This document shows, in pieces, positions 7,137 to 26,320 of a stretch of 64,000 bases of DNA. The notes beneath the pieces were generated by a model, which worked only from the letters and a program-made list of their open reading frames with translations, was not told the origin of the DNA and did no database searches. The first letter of the stretch is position 1, and each line of letters begins with the position of its first letter. The DNA comes from a bacterium (GTDB lineage Bacteria > Patescibacteriota > Dojkabacteria > JAKAPS01 > JAJZLI01), in NCBI GenBank assembly GCA_021846685.1, contig JAJZWL010000002.1, positions 9,321-73,320 on the forward strand. The letters are read 5' to 3'. The position numbers and the translations under genes were made by a program.

Positions 7137-8252
7137 ATGAGAATAGCAATAGATGCCAGATTTGCAAATTTGAAAGTTGGAATAGGGAGAGTTGCCTATA
7201 ATCTTACTAAAGAAATTCTCCTGCTAGATGATGAGAATTATTACGTAATTCTTCTAGGGGAGAATGATCCTTTTGTTGATATTAAAAAAGATAATGTAAA
7301 AAAGATAAAAAATGCATTTTCAACAAGAAAAAAATTGTTTTGGCAATTTTTCTATCTACCATATATCTTAAAAAAAGAAAAAATAGATATATTTTTTTCA
7401 ACTGAAAATTTCATAATACCTCCATTTTTTAAAGGAAAAACTGTTGTCACAGTACATGATTTAATACCATTAGTATTTAAAGAATATCTTCAAGGAAAAA
7501 TCTCTCCATATAAACTAAAGGTATATATGACAAAATTATTTCCTCCTAAAAAAATAATGACCATTTCTAATTTTTCTAAAGAAGAAATCAAAAGAGTATT
7601 AAAAATAGCTGAAAAAGATATCTTTGTCATTAAAGAAAGTTTTGATAATAGATTGAAGAATATAAAAGAAGATATAAATATATTGCATCATTTAGAAATA
7701 AAAAAACCATATATATTAGGAATAGGAGGAATGGAACTTAGAAAAAATAATAAAGTTCTTATAGATGCTTTTATAGATATGATAGAGAATAATGGAGAGT
7801 TAAGACACTCACTTGTAATAGTTGGGCAAATTTATTCAAAAAAAATTCCTATGGATACAAGAGATATTCCAGAAAATCTTGCAGATAGAATTAAAATGAT
7901 TATAGAAGTTTCTGATGAAGAACTCTCTGTATTATATCAAAATGCTGATATATTCGTATATCCTACGATATATGAAGGATTCGGACTTCCCCCTTTAGAA
8001 TCATTTAAACATAAAACCCCCGTGATAACATCAAATATCACATCAATTCCTGAAGTAGTACAAGATGCTGCAATTCTTATAAATCCTTATAAAAAAGAAG
8101 AAATAGAAGAAGCTATGATAAAAATAATCAGAAGTAATGATTTAAAAGAACAATTAATTAAAAGGGGGACGTCTATTTTAAGAAACTATAATTGGAGTAA
8201 ATCAGCTGAAAAAGTAATCAAGGAATTTAAAAAAATATATGACCAAGAATAA
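7137..8252 (+). CDS. Glycosyltransferase family 4 (GT-B, retaining)
   Basis: EX7E motif 'EGFGLPPLESF'; length and layout of the GT4 RfaB/WcaL type. Confidence 0.8.
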   Translation: MRIAIDARFANLKVGIGRVAYNLTKEILLLDDENYYVILLGENDPFVDIKKDNVKKIKNAFSTRKKLFWQFFYLPYILKKEKIDIFFSTENFIIPPFFKGKTVVTVHDLIPLVFKEYLQGKISPYKLKVYMTKLFPPKKIMTISNFSKEEIKRVLKIAEKDIFVIKESFDNRLKNIKEDINILHHLEIKKPYILGIGGMELRKNNKVLIDAFIDMIENNGELRHSLVIVGQIYSKKIPMDTRDIPENLADRIKMIIEVSDEELSVLYQNADIFVYPTIYEGFGLPPLESFKHKTPVITSNITSIPEVVQDAAILINPYKKEEIEEAMIKIIRSNDLKEQLIKRGTSILRNYNWSKSAEKVIKEFKKIYDQE

Positions 8253-9306
8253 TCCAATATATATAATAACTGAGAATATAGGACAAGGACATAGATCTGT
8301 ATCAGAGGCATTAAAAGAATCTATTGAAGATGAATCTGGGACTAAGGTTGTTGTAATAGATTATTTTTCATTAATAGGGCAAGGTCTAGAAAAAAGTATG
8401 GGGAATATTTATGGTTATTTAATTTTAAATTTTCCATATTTGTATAAATTGATATATAGCCTCATCGATAGAGAAGATTCTTCTACATTAATGGATATGC
8501 TTATCGCACAAAGACTAAAAAATAAAATAGGGCCTAATATAAAAAATGCCATTTTAATAGCTACATTTCCAAATTCTACTATTGCATTATCTTTTATCAA
8601 AGCTCATCGACGTTATGCTGTAATTACTGACTATTACGCACATCAAGGTTGGATAACACAAAAAATAGATGGCTATTTTGTGGCTAATAAAGAAATAAAA
8701 TTACAATTAAAAAAGGCTGGCATAAATGAAAACACAATTCATATAACAGGTATTCCTATAAAAAAAGAATTTTATAAAAAAGTAAATAAACTTAATATAA
8801 AAAAACAGCTAGGTATAAATAATTCAAAAAAGGTTGTTCTCATTCTAGGAGGAGGCGATGGGGTTATTCCTGATGCAGAATATATTGTATCCTTATTTGA
8901 CAACAAAAATAATGTTATTATTATAACTGCTAAAAATTATAGTTTGAAAAAATCATTAGAAAAAAGAAATTTAAAAAATACAAAAATATTTGGATATGTT
9001 GATAATATGTATGAACTCATAAGTATAGCTGATTTGGCAATAACTAAAGCAGGGGGAATTTCATTAAGTGAACTTAATTTAAAAAGAATCCCTATAATAG
9101 TATATAAAACAATACCAGGACAAGAAACTGCTAATACAATATACTTTACAAAAAAACATGCATGTAAAGAAATAAATGATAAAAAAGAATTGAAAATTAC
9201 CGCAAATAAGATATTAAGTGGTAAAATGAAACTTAATGGTATAATAGTAGATACAAAAATACCTGCATTTAATAAAATTATTAATATAATTAACAAGGAT
9301 TTATGA
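8239..9306 (+). CDS. MGDG-synthase/UgtP-like diacylglycerol glycosyltransferase (GT28 family)
   Basis: N-terminal 'ENIGQGHRSVSEALKE' (MGDG_synth motif G-x-G-H); C-terminal Glyco_tran_28_C-like 'TKAGGISLSELNLKRIPIIV'. Confidence 0.6.
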   Translation: MTKNNPIYIITENIGQGHRSVSEALKESIEDESGTKVVVIDYFSLIGQGLEKSMGNIYGYLILNFPYLYKLIYSLIDREDSSTLMDMLIAQRLKNKIGPNIKNAILIATFPNSTIALSFIKAHRRYAVITDYYAHQGWITQKIDGYFVANKEIKLQLKKAGINENTIHITGIPIKKEFYKKVNKLNIKKQLGINNSKKVVLILGGGDGVIPDAEYIVSLFDNKNNVIIITAKNYSLKKSLEKRNLKNTKIFGYVDNMYELISIADLAITKAGGISLSELNLKRIPIIVYKTIPGQETANTIYFTKKHACKEINDKKELKITANKILSGKMKLNGIIVDTKIPAFNKIINIINKDL

Positions 9307-10430
9307 AAAAAAATATAGATAAAAAAAAGAGAATTTTAATATTAATGTCAAAAACAGGAAATGGGCATTTATCAGTAGCAGAAACTCTAAAAGAATATTT
9401 TGAATATGTAGATCCTGAGAAATATGAAGTTAAAATAGTTGATGCCCTACAAGACCACTCAAAAAGAATTGTAAAAAATATATCAAAATCATATGTACCT
9501 GTTGTGAAATATTTACCTACACTTTATACATCTGGTTTTTATTTCACTGACAATGAAATTAGATTATCCCTATTACTATCTTTAATAAGATTACAATCCA
9601 GAAAAAAAGTTACTACATTAATCGATACATTCCAACCTAACCTTATAATATCAGTACATCCACTTGTTAATAAAATTGCGGGCGAAATTTCAAAAAAAAA
9701 GAATATCCCATTTGGAGTTCTTATTACAGATATGTATAATGTTCACGAAAGTTGGTTTAACAGAGATGCTGACCTATATATTGCCCCTAATACTTATGTC
9801 GCAAAACAATGTAAAAAACATGGTATTCAAAATGTAAAAGCTTTTTCAATCCCTGTAAAATTAAAATTTTCAAAACCATTAGATCTAGATAAAATCAGGA
9901 AAAAATATAAACTAGATAAAGATAAACATACTATACTCTTTACCTTTGGAGGAGGAGGTACAGTTAACCCCGCAAAGATTCTTAAAGAACTAATAAAAAA
10001 AGATCCCAATAAATATCAAATTATTGTTAATAATGGAAAAAATATAAAAACATATAGAGAGATAGAAAAAATAAAAATAAAAAGCAAGATGAAAATAGTC
10101 AATTTGGGATTTATTAATAATATGGAAGAAATAATGAATATATCAGATATAGCAGTTTGTAAGGCAGGGGCAACTACAGTTCAAGAATTATTTTCAACAA
10201 CAGTTGTTCCAATAATAATTAATTATGTAAGAGGACAAGAGAAAGACTGCGCAGACTTTGTAAAATTAAAAAGAGCAGGAATTGTGAGTAAAAGAAAAGT
10301 AGTTGAAATTATAGAAAATATTACAAAAAATCCTAAACGACTAGAAAGGTATAAAAGAAATGAAGAAAAATTATCTGATAAAGAATCTGGATTAAAATCT
10401 ATTAAAGAATTTATTAAATTAATAAAATAA
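9303..10430 (+). CDS. Second MGDG-synthase/UgtP-like glycosyltransferase (GT28), tandem paralogue
   Basis: 'SKTGNGHLSVAETLKE' N-motif and 'CKAGATTVQELFSTTVVPIIIN' C-motif; ATGA overlap with the upstream paralogue. Confidence 0.6.
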   Translation: MKKNIDKKKRILILMSKTGNGHLSVAETLKEYFEYVDPEKYEVKIVDALQDHSKRIVKNISKSYVPVVKYLPTLYTSGFYFTDNEIRLSLLLSLIRLQSRKKVTTLIDTFQPNLIISVHPLVNKIAGEISKKKNIPFGVLITDMYNVHESWFNRDADLYIAPNTYVAKQCKKHGIQNVKAFSIPVKLKFSKPLDLDKIRKKYKLDKDKHTILFTFGGGGTVNPAKILKELIKKDPNKYQIIVNNGKNIKTYREIEKIKIKSKMKIVNLGFINNMEEIMNISDIAVCKAGATTVQELFSTTVVPIIINYVRGQEKDCADFVKLKRAGIVSKRKVVEIIENITKNPKRLERYKRNEEKLSDKESGLKSIKEFIKLIK

Positions 10431-12716: not shown

Positions 12717-12746
12717 TTGACAAGAATAATCTAGTATGTATATAAT
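12717..12746 (+). promoter_or_regulatory. Near-consensus sigma70 promoter of the toxin-antitoxin operon (TTGACA-N18-TATAAT), giving a leaderless or near-leaderless transcript
   Basis: TTGACA 12717-12722 and TATAAT 12741-12746. The spacer contains the 20-bp CTAGTATG palindromic motif, a likely operator. Confidence 0.5.
12725..12743. repeat. Motif copy L (AATAATCTAGTATGTATAT) overlapping the TA promoter
   Basis: Imperfect inverted partner at 13293..13313; related direct copy at 13499..13516. Confidence 0.6.
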
Positions 12747-13029
12747 AGATAATATGAAAACAGCAACTGTTAATTTTAAAACAGATATATCAATTAAAAT
12801 AAAAGCTCAAGAGGTTGCTCATAAATTGGGTATTCCATTAAGTAATTTACTAAATGCATACCTTTATGAGCTCATTAATACAGGTAGTGTACATTTTACT
12901 ACTACTGAACCAATGACTGAAAAAATGGAAAAAATTATTGCGCAGGCAGAGTTAGAAATGGCTTCAGGAAAAGTTAGTGGTCCATTTAAAACTGTTGAAG
13001 AGTTCTTTGCCCATCTTGATAATTTATAA
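12736..13029 (+). CDS. dinJ: Type II antitoxin, RelB/DinJ family (ribbon-helix-helix); likely true start is the second Met at 12754
   Basis: 'KTATVNFKTDISIKIKAQEVAHKLGIPLSNLLNAYLYELINTGSV' matches the DinJ/RelB N-terminal RHH pattern; stop overlaps the toxin start (TAATG). Confidence 0.6.
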   Translation: MYIIDNMKTATVNFKTDISIKIKAQEVAHKLGIPLSNLLNAYLYELINTGSVHFTTTEPMTEKMEKIIAQAELEMASGKVSGPFKTVEEFFAHLDNL

Positions 13030-13286
13030 TGAATATTCAGACTACAAAAAATTTCGATAAACAGTACTCAAAACTCAATATAAAAATTAAAAATCAGTTT
13101 AAAAAGAATATAGAATTATTTAAACTTAATCCATTTGACATAACTTTAAGAAATCACGCACTTAAAGGAAGGTACTTAGGATATAGAAGTATTGATATTA
13201 GCGGAGATGTTAGAGCATTATATACAGTCAAAGGAAATACTATAATTATATTTGCATTCATTGGTACACATAGTCAATTATATTAA
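13029..13286 (+). CDS. yafQ: Type II toxin, RelE/YafQ-family mRNA interferase
   Basis: 'HALKGRYLGYRSIDISGDVRALYTVKGNTIIIFAFIGTHSQLY' aligns with the E. coli YafQ C-terminus (HPLQGSWKGYRDAHVEPDWILIYKL...LRFERTGTHAALF). Confidence 0.65.
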   Translation: MNIQTTKNFDKQYSKLNIKIKNQFKKNIELFKLNPFDITLRNHALKGRYLGYRSIDISGDVRALYTVKGNTIIIFAFIGTHSQLY

Positions 13287-13557: not shown

Positions 13558-13708
13558 ATTAAAGAAAAAGTATTAAAAAGTTCAAGATCGAAATTAATGA
13601 AGAAATAATATTTAAAGAATAATAATTTTACTTTTCTTCTTCTATTACCTCAAATTCATTCTTACCCTCTTTATTTTTTCCCTTATACTCCAATTCTATT
13701 CCACAGAA
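13558..13708. repeat. Direct repeat copy 2 (~150 bp): a non-functional copy of the murB 3' end plus the authentic 3' end of the LysW-like gene
   Basis: See copy 1. Here the murB-derived part is a remnant and the LysW-like gene reads through intact. Confidence 0.85.
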
Positions 13709-13786
13709 AGGACACTCAACTGTCTCTCCTACAGAAACTTTTTCTATCTTAAATTCATTTTGACACTCAGTACATGTAATATCCAT
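13628..13786 (-). CDS. Small (52 aa) zinc-ribbon protein resembling LysW/ArgW amino-group carrier proteins; below the ORF-track length cutoff
   Basis: Hand translation of the minus strand gives MDITCTECQNEFKIEKVSVGETVECPFCGIELEYKGKNKEGKNEFEVIEEEK. The CxxC-x12-GE-x-V-x-C-x-x-CG-x-ELE pattern aligns with Thermus LysW (TCPECGAEINLENPELGELVVCEDCGAELEV) and the tail is acidic. Unlike canonical LysW (EDWGE), it ends in Lys. Confidence 0.5.
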   Translation of the reverse strand: MDITCTECQNEFKIEKVSVGETVECPFCGIELEYKGKNKEGKNEFEVIEEEK

Positions 13787-16257: not shown

Positions 16258-17193
16258 ATGGACAATTCCGAAAAAAAAGGTATATGGCTATATGAAGATA
16301 TTTATTCTTATAAAATCAAAGGTGAAAATAGAATAAGTATTGGAGAAGGAAATACCCAACTAGAAAGATTAAAGTTCTTAGAAATAGCATTAGGGATCCC
16401 TGTTATATATGCAAAAAGAGAAGATAAAAATCCTACAGGATCAGCTAAAGATAGATCCACTGCTTTCTTTTTTTCTTATCTTAAATCTAATAGAATAAAT
16501 GAAGTTGTAATTCCGTCTTCTGGTAATACAGCAATATCTGCAGCATATTATGGAAAGATAACAGGGATTAAATTATATTTATTTATATCAGAAAATTTTT
16601 CAATTATAAAAAACCAAAGATTAAATAAAGCTTTAAAAAACAATAAAAATATAGAAATTATTAAATCAAAAAGACCTTTATCTGATGCCATTAAATATGC
16701 AAAAGAAAATCATATAGAACTATTTAGAGGATCTACCTCACAAATAGCAATTGAAGGATATAAAAGCTTAGGAGAAGAATTATCATTAATAAGAGCAGAT
16801 GCTCTGTTTATCCCTATAAGTAGTGGAACTACAATAGAAGGAATATCAAAAAGATTAAATAAAAATTGCCACATACATATAGTACAGACATCAAAAATTA
16901 ATACTATCTCAAGATTATTTGATACTAATTTTAAATCAGAGAATGTCACCCTAGCAGACTCAATAGTAGCTAGAGTTACTGAAAGAAAAAAAGCTATTGA
17001 AGACATAATAAATAAAACTAAAGGGTGGGGTTGGACAGTGGAAAATACAGAGATTCAAGAATGTCATGATTTATTAATAAAAAATGGAATAAATACATCT
17101 TATGACTCCAGTATCACTATTGCAGCTCTAATGAAGGCAATAAAAAAGGGATATAAATTTAAAAAAGTTATATTAGTTTTCACAGGAAAATGA
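16258..17193 (+). CDS. Threonine synthase-family PLP-dependent enzyme (fold type II), short form
   Basis: 'GEGNTQL', catalytic-lysine motif 'NPTGSAKDR', 'SSGNTAISAAYYG', and 'IPISSGTT' mirroring ThrC motifs. 311 aa, shorter than typical ThrC. Confidence 0.65.
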   Translation: MDNSEKKGIWLYEDIYSYKIKGENRISIGEGNTQLERLKFLEIALGIPVIYAKREDKNPTGSAKDRSTAFFFSYLKSNRINEVVIPSSGNTAISAAYYGKITGIKLYLFISENFSIIKNQRLNKALKNNKNIEIIKSKRPLSDAIKYAKENHIELFRGSTSQIAIEGYKSLGEELSLIRADALFIPISSGTTIEGISKRLNKNCHIHIVQTSKINTISRLFDTNFKSENVTLADSIVARVTERKKAIEDIINKTKGWGWTVENTEIQECHDLLIKNGINTSYDSSITIAALMKAIKKGYKFKKVILVFTGK

Positions 17194-18479
17194 ATAACAT
17201 AGATAATCTATTAGGAAATAATAATATAATATATGTCACAAATGACCCTGAAAGATCTTTAGGTTTAGAAAAAATTACAAAACATTTTTACACTCTATGC
17301 ATAGATGATTCATATATATTAAATTTTTTAAATAATTTTTATTCTTTAAAAAAAAATTTTCCAAACATAGATATATTTAGAAATTCCAATAAATTATTAC
17401 AAGAAGAATCAGTAAAACAATACCTATCTTCTATTAAGAATCCTTCGTTTATGTTTTTTAAAATAGCTCCAAATATTGAAATAGAATTAAAAAATAAAAA
17501 AATTTTAAACACACACTCAGATCTAAATAGAAAATATGAAAACAAAATAATGATTAGTAATATTTTCAAAGATATAGTACCGCCAACAAAAATTATTAAT
17601 TTAAAAATAGATACATACAATTCAATTTCAAATTTTCTGGGAAAGGAGTTTGTAATACAATTTTCTAGAGGACAAAGTGGAAATACCACATTTTTCATTG
17701 ATAATAAAGATCAATTTGAAAAATTACAAGAAAAATATCCTCTAAGAATAGCAAAAGCTGTAAAAAAAATATCCGGTGAATACTTCACGATAAATGGAGT
17801 TATCACAGAAAATGATATTCTAATAGGAAATCTTTCAAAACAAATTACAGGAATAAAAGAATTAACAGCCTTTAAAGGAGGTACTGTAGGAAATGAATGG
17901 ATTACAGGATTAACAATAAAACAAAAAGATATGTTTATTGATAAAATGCAATATATTGGTAAAAAAATGAAAAATGATGGTTATAGAGGTATGTTTGGTG
18001 CAGATTTTGTTTTTGATTCACAAAATATTTTTTTAATAGAGGTAAATGCTAGAGAAAATGCATCTATACCTACATATACAAAAATACAAATTAATGAGAA
18101 TATACTACCTTTTAAATTAATACATATACTTGATTTTCTAAAGATATCATACAAAATAGATTCTACAAAAATTAATAATCAAATATATGAAGATTATAAT
18201 TACAGACAAATAATAATAAGAAATATTCAATCTCACCCTGTAAAAGCAAATACATTTTTAAATGGAGTATATTCTTCTAATTTAGATAAGATTAGAGAAG
18301 GTTATGATATTGATTCATTAAAAAATAATGATTATTTAATTCTCACTTCATATTCAAATGTAAATCCTAATATAGAAATATCTAAAATACAATCAAAAAG
18401 TAGTATAGATAATAATTTTATTAATCAAACTTTAATCAAATTATTGCAAAATCCAGGTGAAGATAATATAATCCTTTAA
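17190..18479 (+). CDS. ATP-grasp domain protein with extra N- and C-terminal regions; translationally coupled to the ThrC-like gene
   Basis: Central ATP-grasp motif '...YRGMFGADFVFDSQNIFLIEVNARENAS...'; ATGA overlap at 17190; about 200 aa N-terminal and about 140 aa C-terminal regions not recognised. Confidence 0.5.
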   Translation: MNNIDNLLGNNNIIYVTNDPERSLGLEKITKHFYTLCIDDSYILNFLNNFYSLKKNFPNIDIFRNSNKLLQEESVKQYLSSIKNPSFMFFKIAPNIEIELKNKKILNTHSDLNRKYENKIMISNIFKDIVPPTKIINLKIDTYNSISNFLGKEFVIQFSRGQSGNTTFFIDNKDQFEKLQEKYPLRIAKAVKKISGEYFTINGVITENDILIGNLSKQITGIKELTAFKGGTVGNEWITGLTIKQKDMFIDKMQYIGKKMKNDGYRGMFGADFVFDSQNIFLIEVNARENASIPTYTKIQINENILPFKLIHILDFLKISYKIDSTKINNQIYEDYNYRQIIIRNIQSHPVKANTFLNGVYSSNLDKIREGYDIDSLKNNDYLILTSYSNVNPNIEISKIQSKSSIDNNFINQTLIKLLQNPGEDNIIL

Positions 18480-21053: not shown

Positions 21054-21167
21054 GATTTAATATGACATTTTATCTTAAATATTGATATTTTTCCACTAAA
21101 TATACATATTGTACTTGATAATATATATATATAAGGTATAAAATGTTAAATTATATAAAGAACACAA

Positions 21168-21905
21168 ATGAAGAACATATACAAAAAGAATGGTATCTCA
21201 TATATTGATACATTAGACAGTTATTCTAAGACACCACTATTAATACTCCATGGCTGGCAACAAGATAAAGAGAGCTGGATGGATGTTATAGATATAATCA
21301 AAAAAGATTATCGAGTAATATGTCTAGATTTGCCTAACTTTGGAAATAGTAAACATGAAAAATTCCTGTCATTAGGAGTAGACGAATATGCAGAACTTAT
21401 AGAAGCTCTGCTAAAACGCCTACATATAGATACTGTAAATATATTAGCTCACTCATTTGGAGGAAGAATTGCAATTAAAATTTCTGCCTCAAAAAATATA
21501 AAAGTGCATTCATTAATACTTTTTTCATCAGCAGGTATAATATCAGAAAAAAGAAAATTGAAAAAATATATTTATACAAAATTCCCTAAAAAAATAATAC
21601 CCCAAAAAATACGAGAACAAATGAGGAGTAATGACTATAAGAATGCAGGAGAACTAAAAGAAGTCTTTTTAAAAGCAATAAACTATAATGTATTTCCTTT
21701 ACTTAAAAAAATTTCGGCTAAAACACTTATAATATGGGGAGATGAAGATAAAGAACTAAATTTGAAAAATGCTGATATTTTAAATATGAATATTAAAGTA
21801 TCAGAACTTTCCATACTAAATGGATATACTCATTTTGCACATATTGAAAATCCATATTTATTTTCCGGAATTGTAAAAAACTTTTTAGATAAAAATGAAA
21901 AATAA
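21168..21905 (+). CDS. Alpha/beta-fold hydrolase
   Basis: 'LILHGWQQ' oxyanion region and nucleophile elbow 'AHSFGG'; C-terminal His region 'GYTHFAHIENP'. Confidence 0.7.
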   Translation: MKNIYKKNGISYIDTLDSYSKTPLLILHGWQQDKESWMDVIDIIKKDYRVICLDLPNFGNSKHEKFLSLGVDEYAELIEALLKRLHIDTVNILAHSFGGRIAIKISASKNIKVHSLILFSSAGIISEKRKLKKYIYTKFPKKIIPQKIREQMRSNDYKNAGELKEVFLKAINYNVFPLLKKISAKTLIIWGDEDKELNLKNADILNMNIKVSELSILNGYTHFAHIENPYLFSGIVKNFLDKNEK

Positions 21906-23319
21906 ATATATAACAAAATTACTATATATACTTCAAAGTTTTGAATATGATTCACTTAAATTCTATAAGTATTCATTTAAATTAAAAATTCATTCAAATA
22001 AATTTAAATATAAAGATAAAATAAAATACACTCAAAAAATAAAAGTATTATTAACTATAACTTTGTTATTAGAATTAGTAACATTTATATATTTTGTAAT
22101 ATTATTTGCAAACTTTAAAATATTTAATTTAATATCAATAATAATACTTTTAATAATACTAATACTCATATATGAAGTTTTAACTCCAATATATATTATT
22201 TATTCTTTAAGTTTAATACGCCCAATAGAAAATATATTGAAAGAAAAACAAATTATTAAAGCCAGGAAAAAGGTAGAATCAATTAAAAATATTAAAATAA
22301 TAACAATAACTGGAAGTTATGGGAAAACTAGTACTACTAATTTTATAAAAACATTACTTTCTTTTGATTATAAAGTTTTTACTCCTGGAAAAAGTATTAA
22401 TACAATACTGGGTATATCTAATGAAATTGAAAAGAATATGAAAAATGATACAGAAATATTAGTACTTGAAGTAGGTGCATATAAAATAGGCGAAATCAAA
22501 GAAGTTTTACAAAACTTTCCTTCAGATATTTCGATAATTACTTCAATAGGAACCCAACATCTTGAAAAATTCAAAAGTATTACTAATATAATAAAAGCAG
22601 GAACTGAAATAGTAGACTATTCTAAAGAAAAATCTACTATTATCGCACCAATAGAAATATATGAATATCCTTTTGAAAAATATGGAGTAAAAATAGAATT
22701 TAGCAAAAAGAAAGAATATCTAAAAATAAAATATAACATAGTTAAAATTGAAAAAGGTATTATATATTTTAAAACAAATTTTTCAAAAGAAACTTTTCAT
22801 ACCACATTATTAGGTTATTCAATGATATCTAATTTATCTTTAGCTATAAAGTGTGCTGAAATTTTTAATATTAAAAATATTCAAGGAAAAATAAATATAA
22901 TAAAGCCTGTTAAAAGGAGAATGGAACCCATATATATTAATAATGTTCTATATATAGATGATACATATAATATAGGAGATGAAAGTGCTCGATCTGCAAT
23001 AACATTTCTCAAAGATATGAAAGATAAACAAATATTCAAAAGAATCTTTGTTGTCACAGGAGGAATAGTAGAGAGAGGAGACGAGAGTGAAAAAGTAAAT
23101 AAGGAATATGGGATATTTTTAAGTAAAAATGTTGATAAAGTTTTTATATTTAATACTCCATTTAAAAAATATATTAAAGATGGTATAAATAAAACAGAAA
23201 CAATGACTGATATTGAAAATTATACTGAATTTGAAAAGTATAAAAAAGATTTTAAAGTTGGTGATTGTATATTAATGCAAAATGAAATAACTGATGAATA
23301 TTATTTTAAAAGTATGTAA
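21895..23319 (+). CDS. murF: MurF-like Mur ligase (UDP-MurNAc-tripeptide--D-Ala-D-Ala ligase family) with an N-terminal transmembrane segment in place of the usual N-terminal domain
   Basis: P-loop 'ITITGSYGKTSTTNF', 'LVLEVGAYKIGEIKEV', 'ITSIGTQHLEKFKSI', C-terminal 'DDTYNIGDESARSAI' (MurF-like). Residues ~40-110 form 2-3 predicted TM helices. ddl lies directly downstream. Confidence 0.65.
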   Translation: MKNKYITKLLYILQSFEYDSLKFYKYSFKLKIHSNKFKYKDKIKYTQKIKVLLTITLLLELVTFIYFVILFANFKIFNLISIIILLIILILIYEVLTPIYIIYSLSLIRPIENILKEKQIIKARKKVESIKNIKIITITGSYGKTSTTNFIKTLLSFDYKVFTPGKSINTILGISNEIEKNMKNDTEILVLEVGAYKIGEIKEVLQNFPSDISIITSIGTQHLEKFKSITNIIKAGTEIVDYSKEKSTIIAPIEIYEYPFEKYGVKIEFSKKKEYLKIKYNIVKIEKGIIYFKTNFSKETFHTTLLGYSMISNLSLAIKCAEIFNIKNIQGKINIIKPVKRRMEPIYINNVLYIDDTYNIGDESARSAITFLKDMKDKQIFKRIFVVTGGIVERGDESEKVNKEYGIFLSKNVDKVFIFNTPFKKYIKDGINKTETMTDIENYTEFEKYKKDFKVGDCILMQNEITDEYYFKSM

Positions 23320-23322
23320 AAT

Positions 23323-24456
23323 ATGAAAAATATAATATTACTATTTGGAGGGGAATCTCCTGAGCATGAAATTTCAATAATCACAGCAAAACAAATATTT
23401 GCCAAATGTGATTTAAAAAAATACAATGTTTACCCTATATATCTAGATAAAGAACACAAATTTAAATATATACCAGAGTTTCATAAGTTCAATACATTTA
23501 AAGACTTTAAAGATTTAAAAAAAATAAATATAAAAATTATAATAGAAAATGGTCAAACTGTTTTTTATTTAGGAAACTTAAGAAAATTAAAAGATATATA
23601 TGCAGCTTTATTAACTTTTCACGGTGGAGAAGGAGAGAATGGTAAAATTCAAGGATTTTTAGATACTTTAAAAATCCCATACACAGGACCAAGTGTAAAA
23701 GGATCTGTATATGGGATAGATAAAATAGTGATGAAGTATATTTTAGAAAAAAATAATATACCAATAGTTCCTTGGACATATATCAGTAAACATGATTGGG
23801 AAGAAAATAAAGATAAATGTATAAAAAAAATTAAAGAGTTGGACAAATATCCATTAATTGTAAAACCTTCATCTTTAGGATCTAGTATAGGTGTCAAAAA
23901 AGTTGATAATGATAATGAACTAATAGATATAATTGATTCAGATATTCTTTATGATGAATTTATAATAATAGAAGTATTTAAAGAAAATCTTGTGGAAATT
24001 ACTTATTCTCTTCTGAAAGATAAAGATATAATATTATTTTCATTATCAGAAGAAATTGAGAAGAATATGAACATTGTATATAGCTATAGTGACAAATATC
24101 TATCTGGAGACAAGAATAAATCGAAATCAGAAGGAATGGCTAATTCAAAGAAAAAAATACCTGCAAATATTCCAGAGACTCTAGATAAGAGAATAAAAGA
24201 GACTGCGAAAAAAATATATGTTAGTCTAAATTCTCAAAGTCTTGTCAGAATTGATTATTTAGTAGATATAAAAAATAATAAATTTTATCCTATTGAAATA
24301 AATACTATTCCTGGATCATTATCTTTCTATCTTTGGGAGGCAAAAGGTGTGCAATTTAGAGAAATAATAGACATAATGATAGAAACATCTGTGTTAGATT
24401 TTAAAAAACAAGATAAATTTATATCAAATATAGATAGTCCTCTTTGGGATTTCTAA
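23323..24456 (+). CDS. ddl: D-alanine--D-alanine ligase
   Basis: 'IILLFGGESPEHEISIITAKQ', 'HGGEGENGKIQGFLDTLKIPYTGPSV', C-terminal ATP-grasp. Confidence 0.85.
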   Translation: MKNIILLFGGESPEHEISIITAKQIFAKCDLKKYNVYPIYLDKEHKFKYIPEFHKFNTFKDFKDLKKINIKIIIENGQTVFYLGNLRKLKDIYAALLTFHGGEGENGKIQGFLDTLKIPYTGPSVKGSVYGIDKIVMKYILEKNNIPIVPWTYISKHDWEENKDKCIKKIKELDKYPLIVKPSSLGSSIGVKKVDNDNELIDIIDSDILYDEFIIIEVFKENLVEITYSLLKDKDIILFSLSEEIEKNMNIVYSYSDKYLSGDKNKSKSEGMANSKKKIPANIPETLDKRIKETAKKIYVSLNSQSLVRIDYLVDIKNNKFYPIEINTIPGSLSFYLWEAKGVQFREIIDIMIETSVLDFKKQDKFISNIDSPLWDF

Positions 24457-24472: not shown

Positions 24473-24501
24473 TTGACAAATATCAACTTTGATCTTATAA
24501 T
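24473..24501 (+). promoter_or_regulatory. Consensus sigma70 promoter (TTGACA-N17-TATAAT) in front of the NlpC/P60-like gene
   Basis: TTGACA 24473-24478, TATAAT 24496-24501, ATG at 24512. Confidence 0.45.
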
Positions 24502-24511
24502 ATTTTATTAT

Positions 24512-25222
24512 ATGAGTGATATTAAAATTAAAAAATTACCTCAAGAGTGCTTTGATATATATGGACAGTATAATAATGTTCCTTATTATATAAATAAAAG
24601 TAAAAATAAATTCTTAAAAAATATCAATAGAGGAAAAGCTAGCCCAAAAGAAATCGACCTATTTATATTAAATAAGAATAATAATAAAGCTCTCAAAGGG
24701 AAAAATAAATATAATTTCTTAAAAGAAAACAAAGTAGGGATTGATTGCTCAGGTTTTGTATCATATATTCTAGAAGAATTAGCCTTAAAAAATAAAGATA
24801 AGCATATTTGGGAAATAATTCATAATACCACTAAAAATCCAATTAAAATATTCTATTCTCATAAAATAAGACCTATTAGCTCTAAAATGAATGCTGATAT
24901 ATTAACAAATGATATTAACAGTATTACTATAAAAAAAATAAATGATATAAAACCAGGAGATTTAATAAGAATGAATGGGGGAAAACATATTGCTATAATA
25001 TCAGAAGTACATTATAACAAAAAAAATGTATCAAAAATCATCTATTGGCAATCTACTGAAAATATAGGAGTTTGTGAATCTGAAATAATTATACAAGATC
25101 CAAATAAAGAGTTAAAAGATCAATTATGGAAGAAGATTAAAGGCTCTAAATATGATACACTCTCATTATATAAGAAAAAAATAAACTCTAATGGAGTAAA
25201 AAGATTAAAATTAATTTCATAA
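24512..25222 (+). CDS. NlpC/P60-family cysteine peptidase-like protein with no signal peptide; start moved to the ATG downstream of the promoter, whereas the ORF track starts at 24473 inside the -35 box
   Basis: Catalytic Cys motif 'GIDCSGFVSYIL' and downstream 'PGDLIRMNGGKHIAIISEV' (His) in NlpC/P60 order; N-terminus is not hydrophobic. Confidence 0.5.
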   Translation: MSDIKIKKLPQECFDIYGQYNNVPYYINKSKNKFLKNINRGKASPKEIDLFILNKNNNKALKGKNKYNFLKENKVGIDCSGFVSYILEELALKNKDKHIWEIIHNTTKNPIKIFYSHKIRPISSKMNADILTNDINSITIKKINDIKPGDLIRMNGGKHIAIISEVHYNKKNVSKIIYWQSTENIGVCESEIIIQDPNKELKDQLWKKIKGSKYDTLSLYKKKINSNGVKRLKLIS

Positions 25223-25225
25223 ATT

Positions 25226-26320
25226 ATGTTAGCAGCTTTTACATTTTTAATATTATCGTTATTAGTATCTTTATTGGTAGCACCATTTATAATTGATTTA
25301 TTGTATCAATTTAAGGTGGTTAGAGGTAGAGCTTCGGATGACACACTAAAAATAAAAAAAAGACAGTCCAAATTGGGCACACCAATGATGGGAGGTATAA
25401 TTATCATTATATCTGTAGTGATAATTACATTATTATTCAATTGGAATAAATATACACAGATTCCTATATTAATATTCTTAATAGGTTCAGCTTTAGGTGC
25501 TATAGATGATTTACTAAATATATTTGGAAAGAAGAAAAGAGTTTTCAAAAGTTTTAAACATCATTTAAAATTAGCTCTTCATCATAAAAAAATAACTAAA
25601 AGAATATTCTATATAATTACTATTCCTTGGGCTTTATATCGAGGATTATTTAATTCAATAGGATCAAGATATGGTACAGGATTATATCCTCATGAAAGAA
25701 TTCTAATTCAAATTATAGAAAGTGCCATAGTGTCTTACTATGTATTCTTTTACTTGCATATTCAAAGTATTTGGATATGGTCTAATATATATGTAAATAT
25801 AGGAATATGGATTATTCCATTAATCTTTTTAATAATTATATCTACTGCAAATGCTGTTAATATAACAGATGGGTTAGATGGATTATCTGTAGGTGTTATG
25901 ATTGCAGCTTTTATAACATTTATGACAATAGCATTGATTCAAAAAAATGAAAGTATTGCAATATTATCTGGAACTATAACAGGAGCATTAGTAACATATC
26001 TATATTTCAATATAAAACCTGCTAGAGTACAAATAGGGGATATAGGCACATTAGGATTAGGATCACTATTAGGAATAATATCAATAATTCTTCAAAAAGA
26101 ATTAATATTAGTTATTGTTGGAGGAGTATTTGTAGTAGAAACACTATCTGTAATAATTCAAAAATTAGGGAAAAAATATCTTCATAAAAAATTCTTTTTA
26201 ATGGCACCTCTTCATCATCATTTAGAATTATTAGGGTGGTCTGAAGAAAAAATAGTAATGAGATTATGGATTTTTTCTTTTATTCTAGCACTAATATCTA
26301 TCTGGATATCTCTTATTTAA
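25226..26320 (+). CDS. mraY: Phospho-N-acetylmuramoyl-pentapeptide transferase MraY, with a ~40-aa Lys/His-rich insertion
   Basis: 'KLGTPMMGG', 'DDLLN', 'NAVNITDGLDGL', 'GDIGTLGLGSLLG', 'APLHHHLELLGW'. Confidence 0.85.
   Translation: MLAAFTFLILSLLVSLLVAPFIIDLLYQFKVVRGRASDDTLKIKKRQSKLGTPMMGGIIIIISVVIITLLFNWNKYTQIPILIFLIGSALGAIDDLLNIFGKKKRVFKSFKHHLKLALHHKKITKRIFYIITIPWALYRGLFNSIGSRYGTGLYPHERILIQIIESAIVSYYVFFYLHIQSIWIWSNIYVNIGIWIIPLIFLIIISTANAVNITDGLDGLSVGVMIAAFITFMTIALIQKNESIAILSGTITGALVTYLYFNIKPARVQIGDIGTLGLGSLLGIISIILQKELILVIVGGVFVVETLSVIIQKLGKKYLHKKFFLMAPLHHHLELLGWSEEKIVMRLWIFSFILALISIWISLI

Follow-up and report, generated by a model that had tools for sequence, protein, structure and literature searches.

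A probable membrane-anchored MurF in a Dojkabacteria genome, with a helical module in place of the N-terminal domain

Textbooks and recent surveys describe MurC to MurF, the ligases of peptidoglycan precursor synthesis, as soluble cytoplasmic enzymes. Whether this holds for all bacteria is the question raised by a gene at positions 21,895 to 23,319 of a 64,000-nucleotide stretch of the Dojkabacteria (Patescibacteriota) contig JAJZWL010000002.1, here called the window, to which all coordinates without another locus name refer. A sequence-only reading of the window had proposed that the encoded protein is a MurF-like ligase whose N-terminal substrate-binding domain is replaced by transmembrane (TM) helices. 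The evidence set out below indicates that it is probably the organism's MurF, adding D-Ala-D-Ala to the N-acetylmuramic acid (MurNAc)-tripeptide precursor, in a form that is integral to the inner membrane and faces the cytoplasm. The protein, hereafter TM-MurF, joins a known but barely characterised kind of membrane-anchored MurF, as its Patescibacteria short form. The gene and its catalytic domains are laid out as follows:

21895..23319, + strand: membrane-anchored MurF (TM-MurF), Patescibacteria-type short form, 474 amino acids (aa), ATG start.
22294..22854, + strand: Mur-ligase middle (ATP-binding) domain, Pfam PF08245, with invariant columns in the family alignment.
22312-22329, + strand: P-loop G140-S-Y-G-K-T145, within the middle domain, which also holds E192 and H222.
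22915..23274, + strand: Mur-ligase C-terminal domain, Pfam PF02875, with the DDTYN motif at residues 355-359, E393 and G395.

The reading frame cannot be extended upstream, because an in-frame stop stands two codons 5' of the ATG and the DNA before it codes for a hydrolase in another frame. This rules out an alternative start or an upstream extension carrying a canonical N-domain, an outcome that the sequence-only reading had named as fatal to its proposal. Pfam assigns residues 138-320 to Mur_ligase_M (E 2.6e-25) and residues 341-460 to Mur_ligase_C (PF02875; E 7e-7, 30.5 bits against a cutoff of 28.4), and the motifs quoted in that reading were all located (TGSYGKTST at 139-147, LEVGAYKIGEI at 191-201, TSIGTQHLEKF at 216-226 and DDTYNIGDES at 355-364). 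G140-T145, E192 and H222, which correspond to the P-loop and to the Glu and His that bind Mg and ATP, are invariant across the family described below, and 33 of 47 family-conserved columns of the catalytic domains are identical to those of one canonical MurF.

Comparison with profiles and structures places the protein with MurF. Its best NCBIfam model is murF (TIGR01143, 152 bits), followed by murD (65), murC (50), murE (46), CfbE (32.8, cutoff 250) and FolC (20.8, cutoff 162.65), and no PgsB/CapB model was found among the matches at E<=0.01. These profile scores rule out CapB/PgsB, FolC, CfbE and cyanophycin synthetase as the identity of the protein. All seven matches of a sequence search of the Protein Data Bank (PDB) are MurF proteins, each alignment starting after the MurF N-domain, and ranks 1-10 of a Foldseek search with the AlphaFold2 (AF2) model are all MurF structures. 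Thus, the earlier assignment to MurF rather than to CapB/PgsB or FolC stands. The TIGR01143 match spans profile positions 73-392 of 418, and the N-domain part of the profile is unmatched because the alignment starts at position 73. In agreement with this, the canonical alpha/beta N-domain of MurF, which binds the uridine diphosphate (UDP) end of the substrate, is absent from TM-MurF, which has no PF01225 and, in the AF2 model, only helices at this position. What stands there is the following:

21895..22293, + strand: N-terminal membrane module (residues 1-133) in place of the canonical MurF N-domain, no Pfam match.
21904..21993, + strand: three short, predicted cytosolic helices (residues 4-15, 20-27 and 30-33) with the QxxEY motif (Q14, E17, Y18), from AF2 and motif conservation.
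22033..22113, + strand: TM helix 1 (residues 47-73), with the conserved T46-x-K48 directly before it, from hydropathy, AF2 and alignment.
22129..22278, + strand: TM helix 2 and cytosolic stalk, one continuous helix (residues 79-128), from AF2.

A Pfam scan gave no match within residues 1-137, PF01225 included. Kyte-Doolittle means over 19 residues reach 2.5-3.0 across residues 47-108, with hydrophobic strings at residues 51-71 and 79-93, and Lys and Arg number 14 in residues 1-50 and 8 in residues 116-135. The AF2 model (predicted local distance difference test score, pLDDT, 94.6; predicted template modelling score, pTM, 0.92; residues 11-30 at pLDDT 91-94) has helices at residues 4-15, 20-27, 30-33, 47-73 and 79-128, and the last of these, 50 residues long, runs up to the ligase, whose first beta-strand is at residue 134; no beta-strand precedes that one. 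The canonical N-domain of MurE and MurF consists of five beta-strands (PMC10117817), and since helices alone precede residue 134 of TM-MurF, this domain has been replaced and not merely diverged. The membrane module therefore truly takes the place of the canonical N-domain, and the proposed swap is borne out by Pfam, hydropathy and AF2 alike. The Lys-rich start followed by hydrophobic helices was also described correctly, and the TM check that the sequence-only reading had suggested gave helices by both hydropathy and AF2. Of the two to three TM helices that it counted, two are confirmed and the third is not, the third hydrophobic patch being a continuation of helix 2 in the AF2 model. Hydrophobicity as a compositional artefact of a 25% GC genome is ruled out, because the same module occurs at loci spanning 24.6-63.8% GC.

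The distribution of Lys and Arg is that expected of an N-in/C-in hairpin. By the positive-inside rule, the N-terminus would lie in the cytoplasm together with the conserved motifs and the catalytic domains, a placement that would suit an ATP-dependent ligase. In the family alignments, Q14 and Y18 are invariant or near-invariant, and T46 (in TxK/R), P110 (in P-[IVL]-[ED]) and A123 are conserved at >=86-91%, so that the module carries the motifs QxxEY, TxK and P-[IVL]-[ED] across the family. The invariant residues on the predicted cytosolic side (Q14, Y18 and T46) mark the N-terminal region as more than a plain anchor. The C-terminal end of the stalk, from about residue 123 and including A123, aligns with the last helix before the middle domain of canonical MurF; correspondingly, the phmmer alignment with Thermotoga maritima MurF (3zl8) begins at residue 123 of the query and residue 73 of the chain.

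This architecture is widespread. Among 120 listed homologues, which range from 24 to 69% in identity, nearly all combine a GS[YF]GK[TS] P-loop with two to five hydrophobic segments before it and lack PF01225, so that the TM N-terminus is shared by relatives, a check that the sequence-only reading had proposed. When 1.84 billion representative proteins were searched with a profile of the module alone, 2,941 clusters matched at E<=1e-3, of which 1,071 also passed E<=1e-10. The 150 best matches all begin with the module, and the ligase follows it in each, save in genes visibly truncated at the junction. A stand-alone N-module protein was considered and rejected, the short matches being truncated genes that end at the P-loop junction. 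A scan of species-representative genomes found TM-MurF in at least 589 genomes. Its Patescibacteria hosts include Saccharibacteria, Dojkabacteria, Uhrbacteria, Doudnabacteria and Harrisonbacteria, and it also occurs in many Clostridia, Erysipelotrichaceae, Mycoplasmatota, Poribacteria, Chloroflexota, Synergistaceae, Balneolales and Rhodothermales, with Gracilimonas mengyeensis as a cultured carrier. The uniqueness implied by the sequence-only reading is therefore not sustained, given these numbers of genomes, clusters and phyla and the membrane MurF already reported for Helicobacter pylori (see below). Rather, the membrane-integral MurF without the canonical N-domain is a large, ancient family with a conserved domain of its own that matches no Pfam family. 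A phage or mobile origin was also considered and set aside, no relatives of TM-MurF being found in viral contigs. A profile search with the long forms of Gram-negative bacteria returned Poribacteria and Balneolaceae as relatives and no Campylobacterota among the best 120. Short contigs with cassettes of the Patescibacteria or Clostridia type were seen in metagenome-assembled genomes labelled Gammaproteobacteria, Pseudomonadales, Bacteroides and Gulosibacter (L022, L031, L036, L054, L063, L071 and L075); these are probably binning errors and not true hosts.

Two forms of TM-MurF can be told apart, namely a short form with two TM helices in Patescibacteria and a long form with four to five in other phyla. 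The distance from the Q motif to the P-loop is 113-134 residues in all 12 loci labelled Patescibacteria and 146-188 in the other phyla examined, except in two Clostridia (127 and 132) and in two small contigs labelled Proteobacteria (96 and 115). With a distance of 126 residues the window protein falls in the Patescibacteria group and is thus the reduced, two-TM version. In the AF2 model of a Poribacteria long form (pLDDT 91.8), five helices are long enough to cross the membrane, and the shared motifs fall on the side where they lie in the short form.

The genes around TM-MurF provide further evidence on its role. Ddl makes the dipeptide substrate of MurF, and MraY uses MurF's product. The features of the window that surround the ligase are these:

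21115..21144, + strand: candidate sigma-70-like promoter, TTGATA-18-TAAAAT, 10/12 match, upstream of the cassette.
21168..21905, + strand: EstV-like alpha/beta-hydrolase, 245 aa, cytoplasmic (no signal peptide), Pfam Abhydrolase_1 (E 1e-21).
23323..24456, + strand: D-alanine--D-alanine ligase (Ddl), TIGR01205, 248.9 bits (cutoff 245.65).
24512..25222, + strand: cytoplasmic NlpC/P60/Amidase_6-like protein, weak Pfam matches (2.6e-5 and 2.6e-4); the mechanically called open reading frame (ORF) starts at TTG 24473.
25226..26320, + strand: MraY (phospho-MurNAc-pentapeptide translocase), TIGR00445, 203.7 bits (cutoff 192).

The sequence-only reading had placed the ligase in a block with ddl, an NlpC/P60-like gene and mraY, and all three are there; it had overlooked the gene at 21168-21905, which encodes the alpha/beta-hydrolase and is the most conserved neighbour of all. 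Its stop overlaps the start of TM-MurF by 11 nt. The best NCBIfam match of this hydrolase is the EstV family lipase (NF058580), over the full length and with 124.7 bits, below the cutoff of 300. The predicted catalytic triad (S96, D194 and H222) is conserved in 100% of 75 hydrolase sequences and is accompanied by an HGW oxyanion motif, on which grounds the partner hydrolase is very probably catalytically active.

Among 80 genomes whose neighbourhoods were examined, an alpha/beta-hydrolase lies directly upstream of TM-MurF in 74, often with a 4-bp overlap, and Ddl lies downstream in 72; both are present in 69. The order in four Poribacteria genomes, of which one is a complete chromosome of 4.69 Mb, is rsmH, penicillin-binding protein, murE, hydrolase, TM-ligase, ddl and mraY. 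Because the three-gene cassette stands between murE and mraY there, it fills the canonical murF slot of the dcw cluster, and the Poribacteria TM-MurF scores 238.8 bits on TIGR01143. The Mur ligases found near cassettes are MurE, MurC, Mpl-like proteins and MurD, with no canonical MurF in about 1.4 Mb of flanks. Adjacency of TM-MurF to mraY, which bears on the channelling of product to MraY that the sequence-only reading had put forward as a possibility, is seen in the window lineage and in Poribacteria and is absent in most of the 80 genomes. In one locus a GNAT acetyltransferase gene is inserted between TM-MurF and ddl (L008 9493-9960, on a 1.14-Mb contig). In Balneolaceae, including Gracilimonas (L006, L007, L024, L081 and L090), TM-MurF stands alone beside a divergent NTP_transferase gene, with neither hydrolase nor ddl, and in Rhodothermales (L052) the hydrolase is kept and ddl is not; in these two groups either the cassette has been dispersed or the enzyme has been put to a different use.

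The order in the window lineage, i.e., hydrolase, TM-murF, ddl, NlpC/P60-like gene and mraY, is kept down to 42% ligase identity. The NlpC/P60-like gene belongs to the block in this lineage only, where relatives at 42-49% ligase identity carry a gene of 241-257 aa in the same position between ddl and mraY (also L091 8558-9331 and L092 8640-9365). Its product has a GIDCSGFV motif with the Cys, a GGKHIAII motif with the His and no signal peptide. A perfect sigma-70 consensus (TTGACA-17-TATAAT) lies at 24473-24501 and ends some 10 nt short of the ATG chosen by gene callers (24512). The NlpC/P60-like gene and mraY may thus have a promoter of their own within the block, giving a transcript with almost no leader. 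Matches of the 10/12 kind are common in this AT-rich sequence (78 found against 55 expected), and the candidate promoter upstream of the cassette is accordingly weak evidence.

Precedents come from two Campylobacterota. The MurF of H. pylori (HP0740, 1485 bp) is an essential protein that co-purifies with two membrane proteins, Csd5 and Csd7, and a passage of PMC9448923, citing Blair et al. 2018, describes it as an inner-membrane protein with 'four N-terminal transmembrane domains'. At 494 aa, HP0740 is too short for four TM helices and a full MurF, so by its length it must also be without the canonical N-domain. In Campylobacter jejuni, murF (Cj0795c) adjoins Cj0796c, which encodes a protein of the alpha/beta-hydrolase fold, and ddl (Cj0798c) lies just upstream. 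Across proteomes Cj0796c varies together with MurF; its gene could not be deleted and may be essential, and the authors of that work suggested a role for it in peptidoglycan biosynthesis. EstV, a family V carboxylesterase of H. pylori, has been characterised on artificial short-chain esters only. A 2023 PNAS survey of mur gene arrangements makes no mention of a membrane MurF, and a literature search on TM-MurF in general, on the N-module and on the role of the hydrolase gave nothing beyond these observations in H. pylori and C. jejuni.

Taken together, the profile match, the fold, the catalytic columns, the murF slot in Poribacteria, the precedent and the lack of another Mur ligase in the window argue that the gene is the cell's MurF; the 64-kb window contains murB and no second Mur ligase. 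If so, the membrane module would keep the final cytoplasmic reaction of the precursor pathway close to MraY at the membrane surface, and the rigid helix formed by TM2 and the stalk would fix how the catalytic domains sit with respect to the bilayer. Q14, Y18 and T46/K48, the invariant residues on the cytosolic side, may provide some or all of the nucleotide-sugar binding for which canonical MurF uses its N-domain, Ddl would supply the dipeptide locally, MraY would take the product, and the hydrolase would be an active and probably stoichiometric partner of TM-MurF. Several points weigh against this assignment. The score of 152 bits misses the curated murF cutoff of 288.6; the acceptor substrate is one that we infer, since the domain that holds the UDP end is absent; and we have no explanation for the need of an active esterase-type hydrolase beside MurF. 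Additionally, the lone TM-MurF of Balneolaceae is compatible with a paralogous role there, and the apparent kinship of the N-module to HP0740 and Cj0795c is judged from architecture, from gene length and from the neighbours that they share.

These points can be read in other ways. The enzyme may derive from MurF and act on a membrane-bound acceptor, adding D-Ala-D-Ala to lipid I- or lipid II-tripeptide after MraY, or acting on another lipid-anchored carboxylate; the lipid-pyrophosphate end would then be the ligand of the module, and an ester intermediate the substrate of the hydrolase. The exchange of the UDP-binding domain for a module that lies in the membrane or at its interface, and whose invariant polar residues sit close to the membrane surface, would suit a lipid-linked acceptor, as would the obligate esterase-type partner with its intact triad, the sub-threshold murF score and the example of MurT, another Mur relative without the N-domain, which acts on lipid II. 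However, no data require a lipid substrate, the linkage to Ddl and the murF slot upstream of mraY suit the classical order equally well, the MraY of the window is an ordinary equivalog, and the literature treats H. pylori MurF as the classical essential enzyme, so that we regard a lipid acceptor as unlikely. A bolder proposal is that hydrolase, TM-MurF and Ddl form a machine that completes the stem peptide at the membrane surface, in which the N-module, in lieu of a UDP-binding domain, picks the acceptor, perhaps lipid-linked MurNAc-tripeptide with MraY acting before MurF, and the hydrolase performs an essential, unrecognised step, which might be the proofreading of ester or depsipeptide products or the release or activation of an intermediate. 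Its hosts would make up a large share of bacteria, namely Patescibacteria, many Clostridia, Campylobacterota, Poribacteria, Chloroflexota and Balneolaceae; we offer it as a speculation with rather little chance of being right.

Alternatively, TM-MurF could be an accessory paralogue beside a canonical MurF, serving stress, recycling or an alternative stem peptide with a Ddl and hydrolase of its own. The three-gene cassette does behave as a self-contained unit, mostly outside dcw clusters, the gene stands alone in Balneolaceae, and hosts with large genomes (Clostridia, Chloroflexota) could afford a paralogue. Yet the small genomes of Patescibacteria and Saccharibacteria also carry TM-MurF, it occupies the murF slot in Poribacteria, the flanks hold no canonical MurF, and the MurF of H. 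pylori is essential; canonical ddl-murF pairs outside dcw clusters are, moreover, normal in Bacilli. This makes a paralogue improbable as well. That the protein is some other membrane-anchored member of the Mur superfamily (PgsB/CapB, FolC, CfbE or a cyanophycin-type ligase) is brought to mind by PgsB, in which a hydrophobic N-terminal anchor likewise replaces the Mur N-domain; with no PgsB/CapB match in NCBIfam, FolC and CfbE scores far under their cutoffs, no pgsC- or pgsA-like neighbours, and structure and sequence neighbours that are all MurF, this identity is very hard to credit. An integral membrane form of the cell's MurF thus remains the preferred reading.

A MurF of this kind matters for the question of how the making of the precursor is linked to MraY at the membrane. 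Inhibitors of MurF that need the region of the canonical N-domain may not work on TM-MurF, and the N-module and the hydrolase could offer lineage-selective targets in Campylobacterota. For annotation, it matters that TM-MurFs fall under the curated murF threshold and are sometimes labelled only 'Mur ligase family protein' or 'hypothetical'. The points of most interest lie at the level of the family, i.e., its breadth, the conserved domain without a Pfam match and the near-obligatory EstV-like partner. Should the three-protein machine exist, it would revise both the textbook order of peptidoglycan precursor synthesis and the picture of all Mur ligases as soluble.

Elsewhere in the window, a gene for a pyridoxal phosphate-dependent (PALP) enzyme overlaps an ATP-grasp_3 gene (16258-18479, + strand), a pair kept in a relative (L091 1308-3505), and a 52-aa ORF of the LysW-type zinc-ribbon kind lies at about 13628-13786 (- strand). 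Together these could form an amino-group-carrier-protein system like LysW/LysX, which would be unusual for a reduced genome. A toxin-antitoxin pair of the RelB/YafQ type, assigned by Pfam, stands between murB and leuS (12736-13286, + strand). Two tandem GT28 glycosyltransferase genes (8239-10430, + strand), which match diglucosyl-diacylglycerol synthase best and MurG weakly, lie upstream of murB in a block that also encodes GT4 glycosyltransferases, a Wzx-like flippase and an O-antigen-ligase/IctB-like membrane protein; the 64-kb window has no gene that is clearly murG.

How, then, does TM-MurF compare with known systems? Like the MurF of H. pylori, it carries N-terminal TM helices ahead of the MurF catalytic domains, two in the window protein and four to five in long-form relatives. 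The short form of the window differs in this from the four helices reported for H. pylori, AF2 giving five for a long-form relative, and no partners of the Csd5, Csd7 or CcmA type are apparent for it. As in C. jejuni, the murF of the window adjoins an alpha/beta-hydrolase gene with ddl nearby, and the hydrolase matches the EstV family best; the order differs, being hydrolase, murF and ddl in the window, whereas ddl lies upstream in C. jejuni. The hydrolase itself resembles EstV in its Ser/Asp/His triad and HG oxyanion motif, and departs from it in a score (124.7 bits) that stays below the equivalog cutoff of 300.

From canonical MurF (T. maritima 3ZL8, Escherichia coli 1GG4 and Acinetobacter baumannii 4QF5), TM-MurF is set apart by the lack of the five-stranded N-domain (PF01225), by its integration in the membrane, by its obligate hydrolase neighbour and by the third residue of the P-loop, which is Tyr or Phe (GS[YF]GKT) in TM-MurF and Asn or Ser in canonical MurF. 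Among other relatives, PgsB/CapB is a Mur-superfamily enzyme that works at the membrane and in which a hydrophobic N-terminal anchor replaces the Mur N-domain. Its profile similarity to TM-MurF goes no further than the superfamily; its partners are PgsC and PgsA, in contrast to the hydrolase and Ddl, and it has a single anchor helix, in contrast to the conserved multi-motif module of TM-MurF. MurT, of the lipid II amidotransferase MurT/GatD, likewise is a Mur relative without the UDP-binding N-domain, has a partner encoded by an adjacent gene and acts on a membrane-bound precursor; unlike TM-MurF, it is a soluble protein with DUF1727 as its C-terminal domain and a glutaminase as its partner, and it is not among the matches of TM-MurF.

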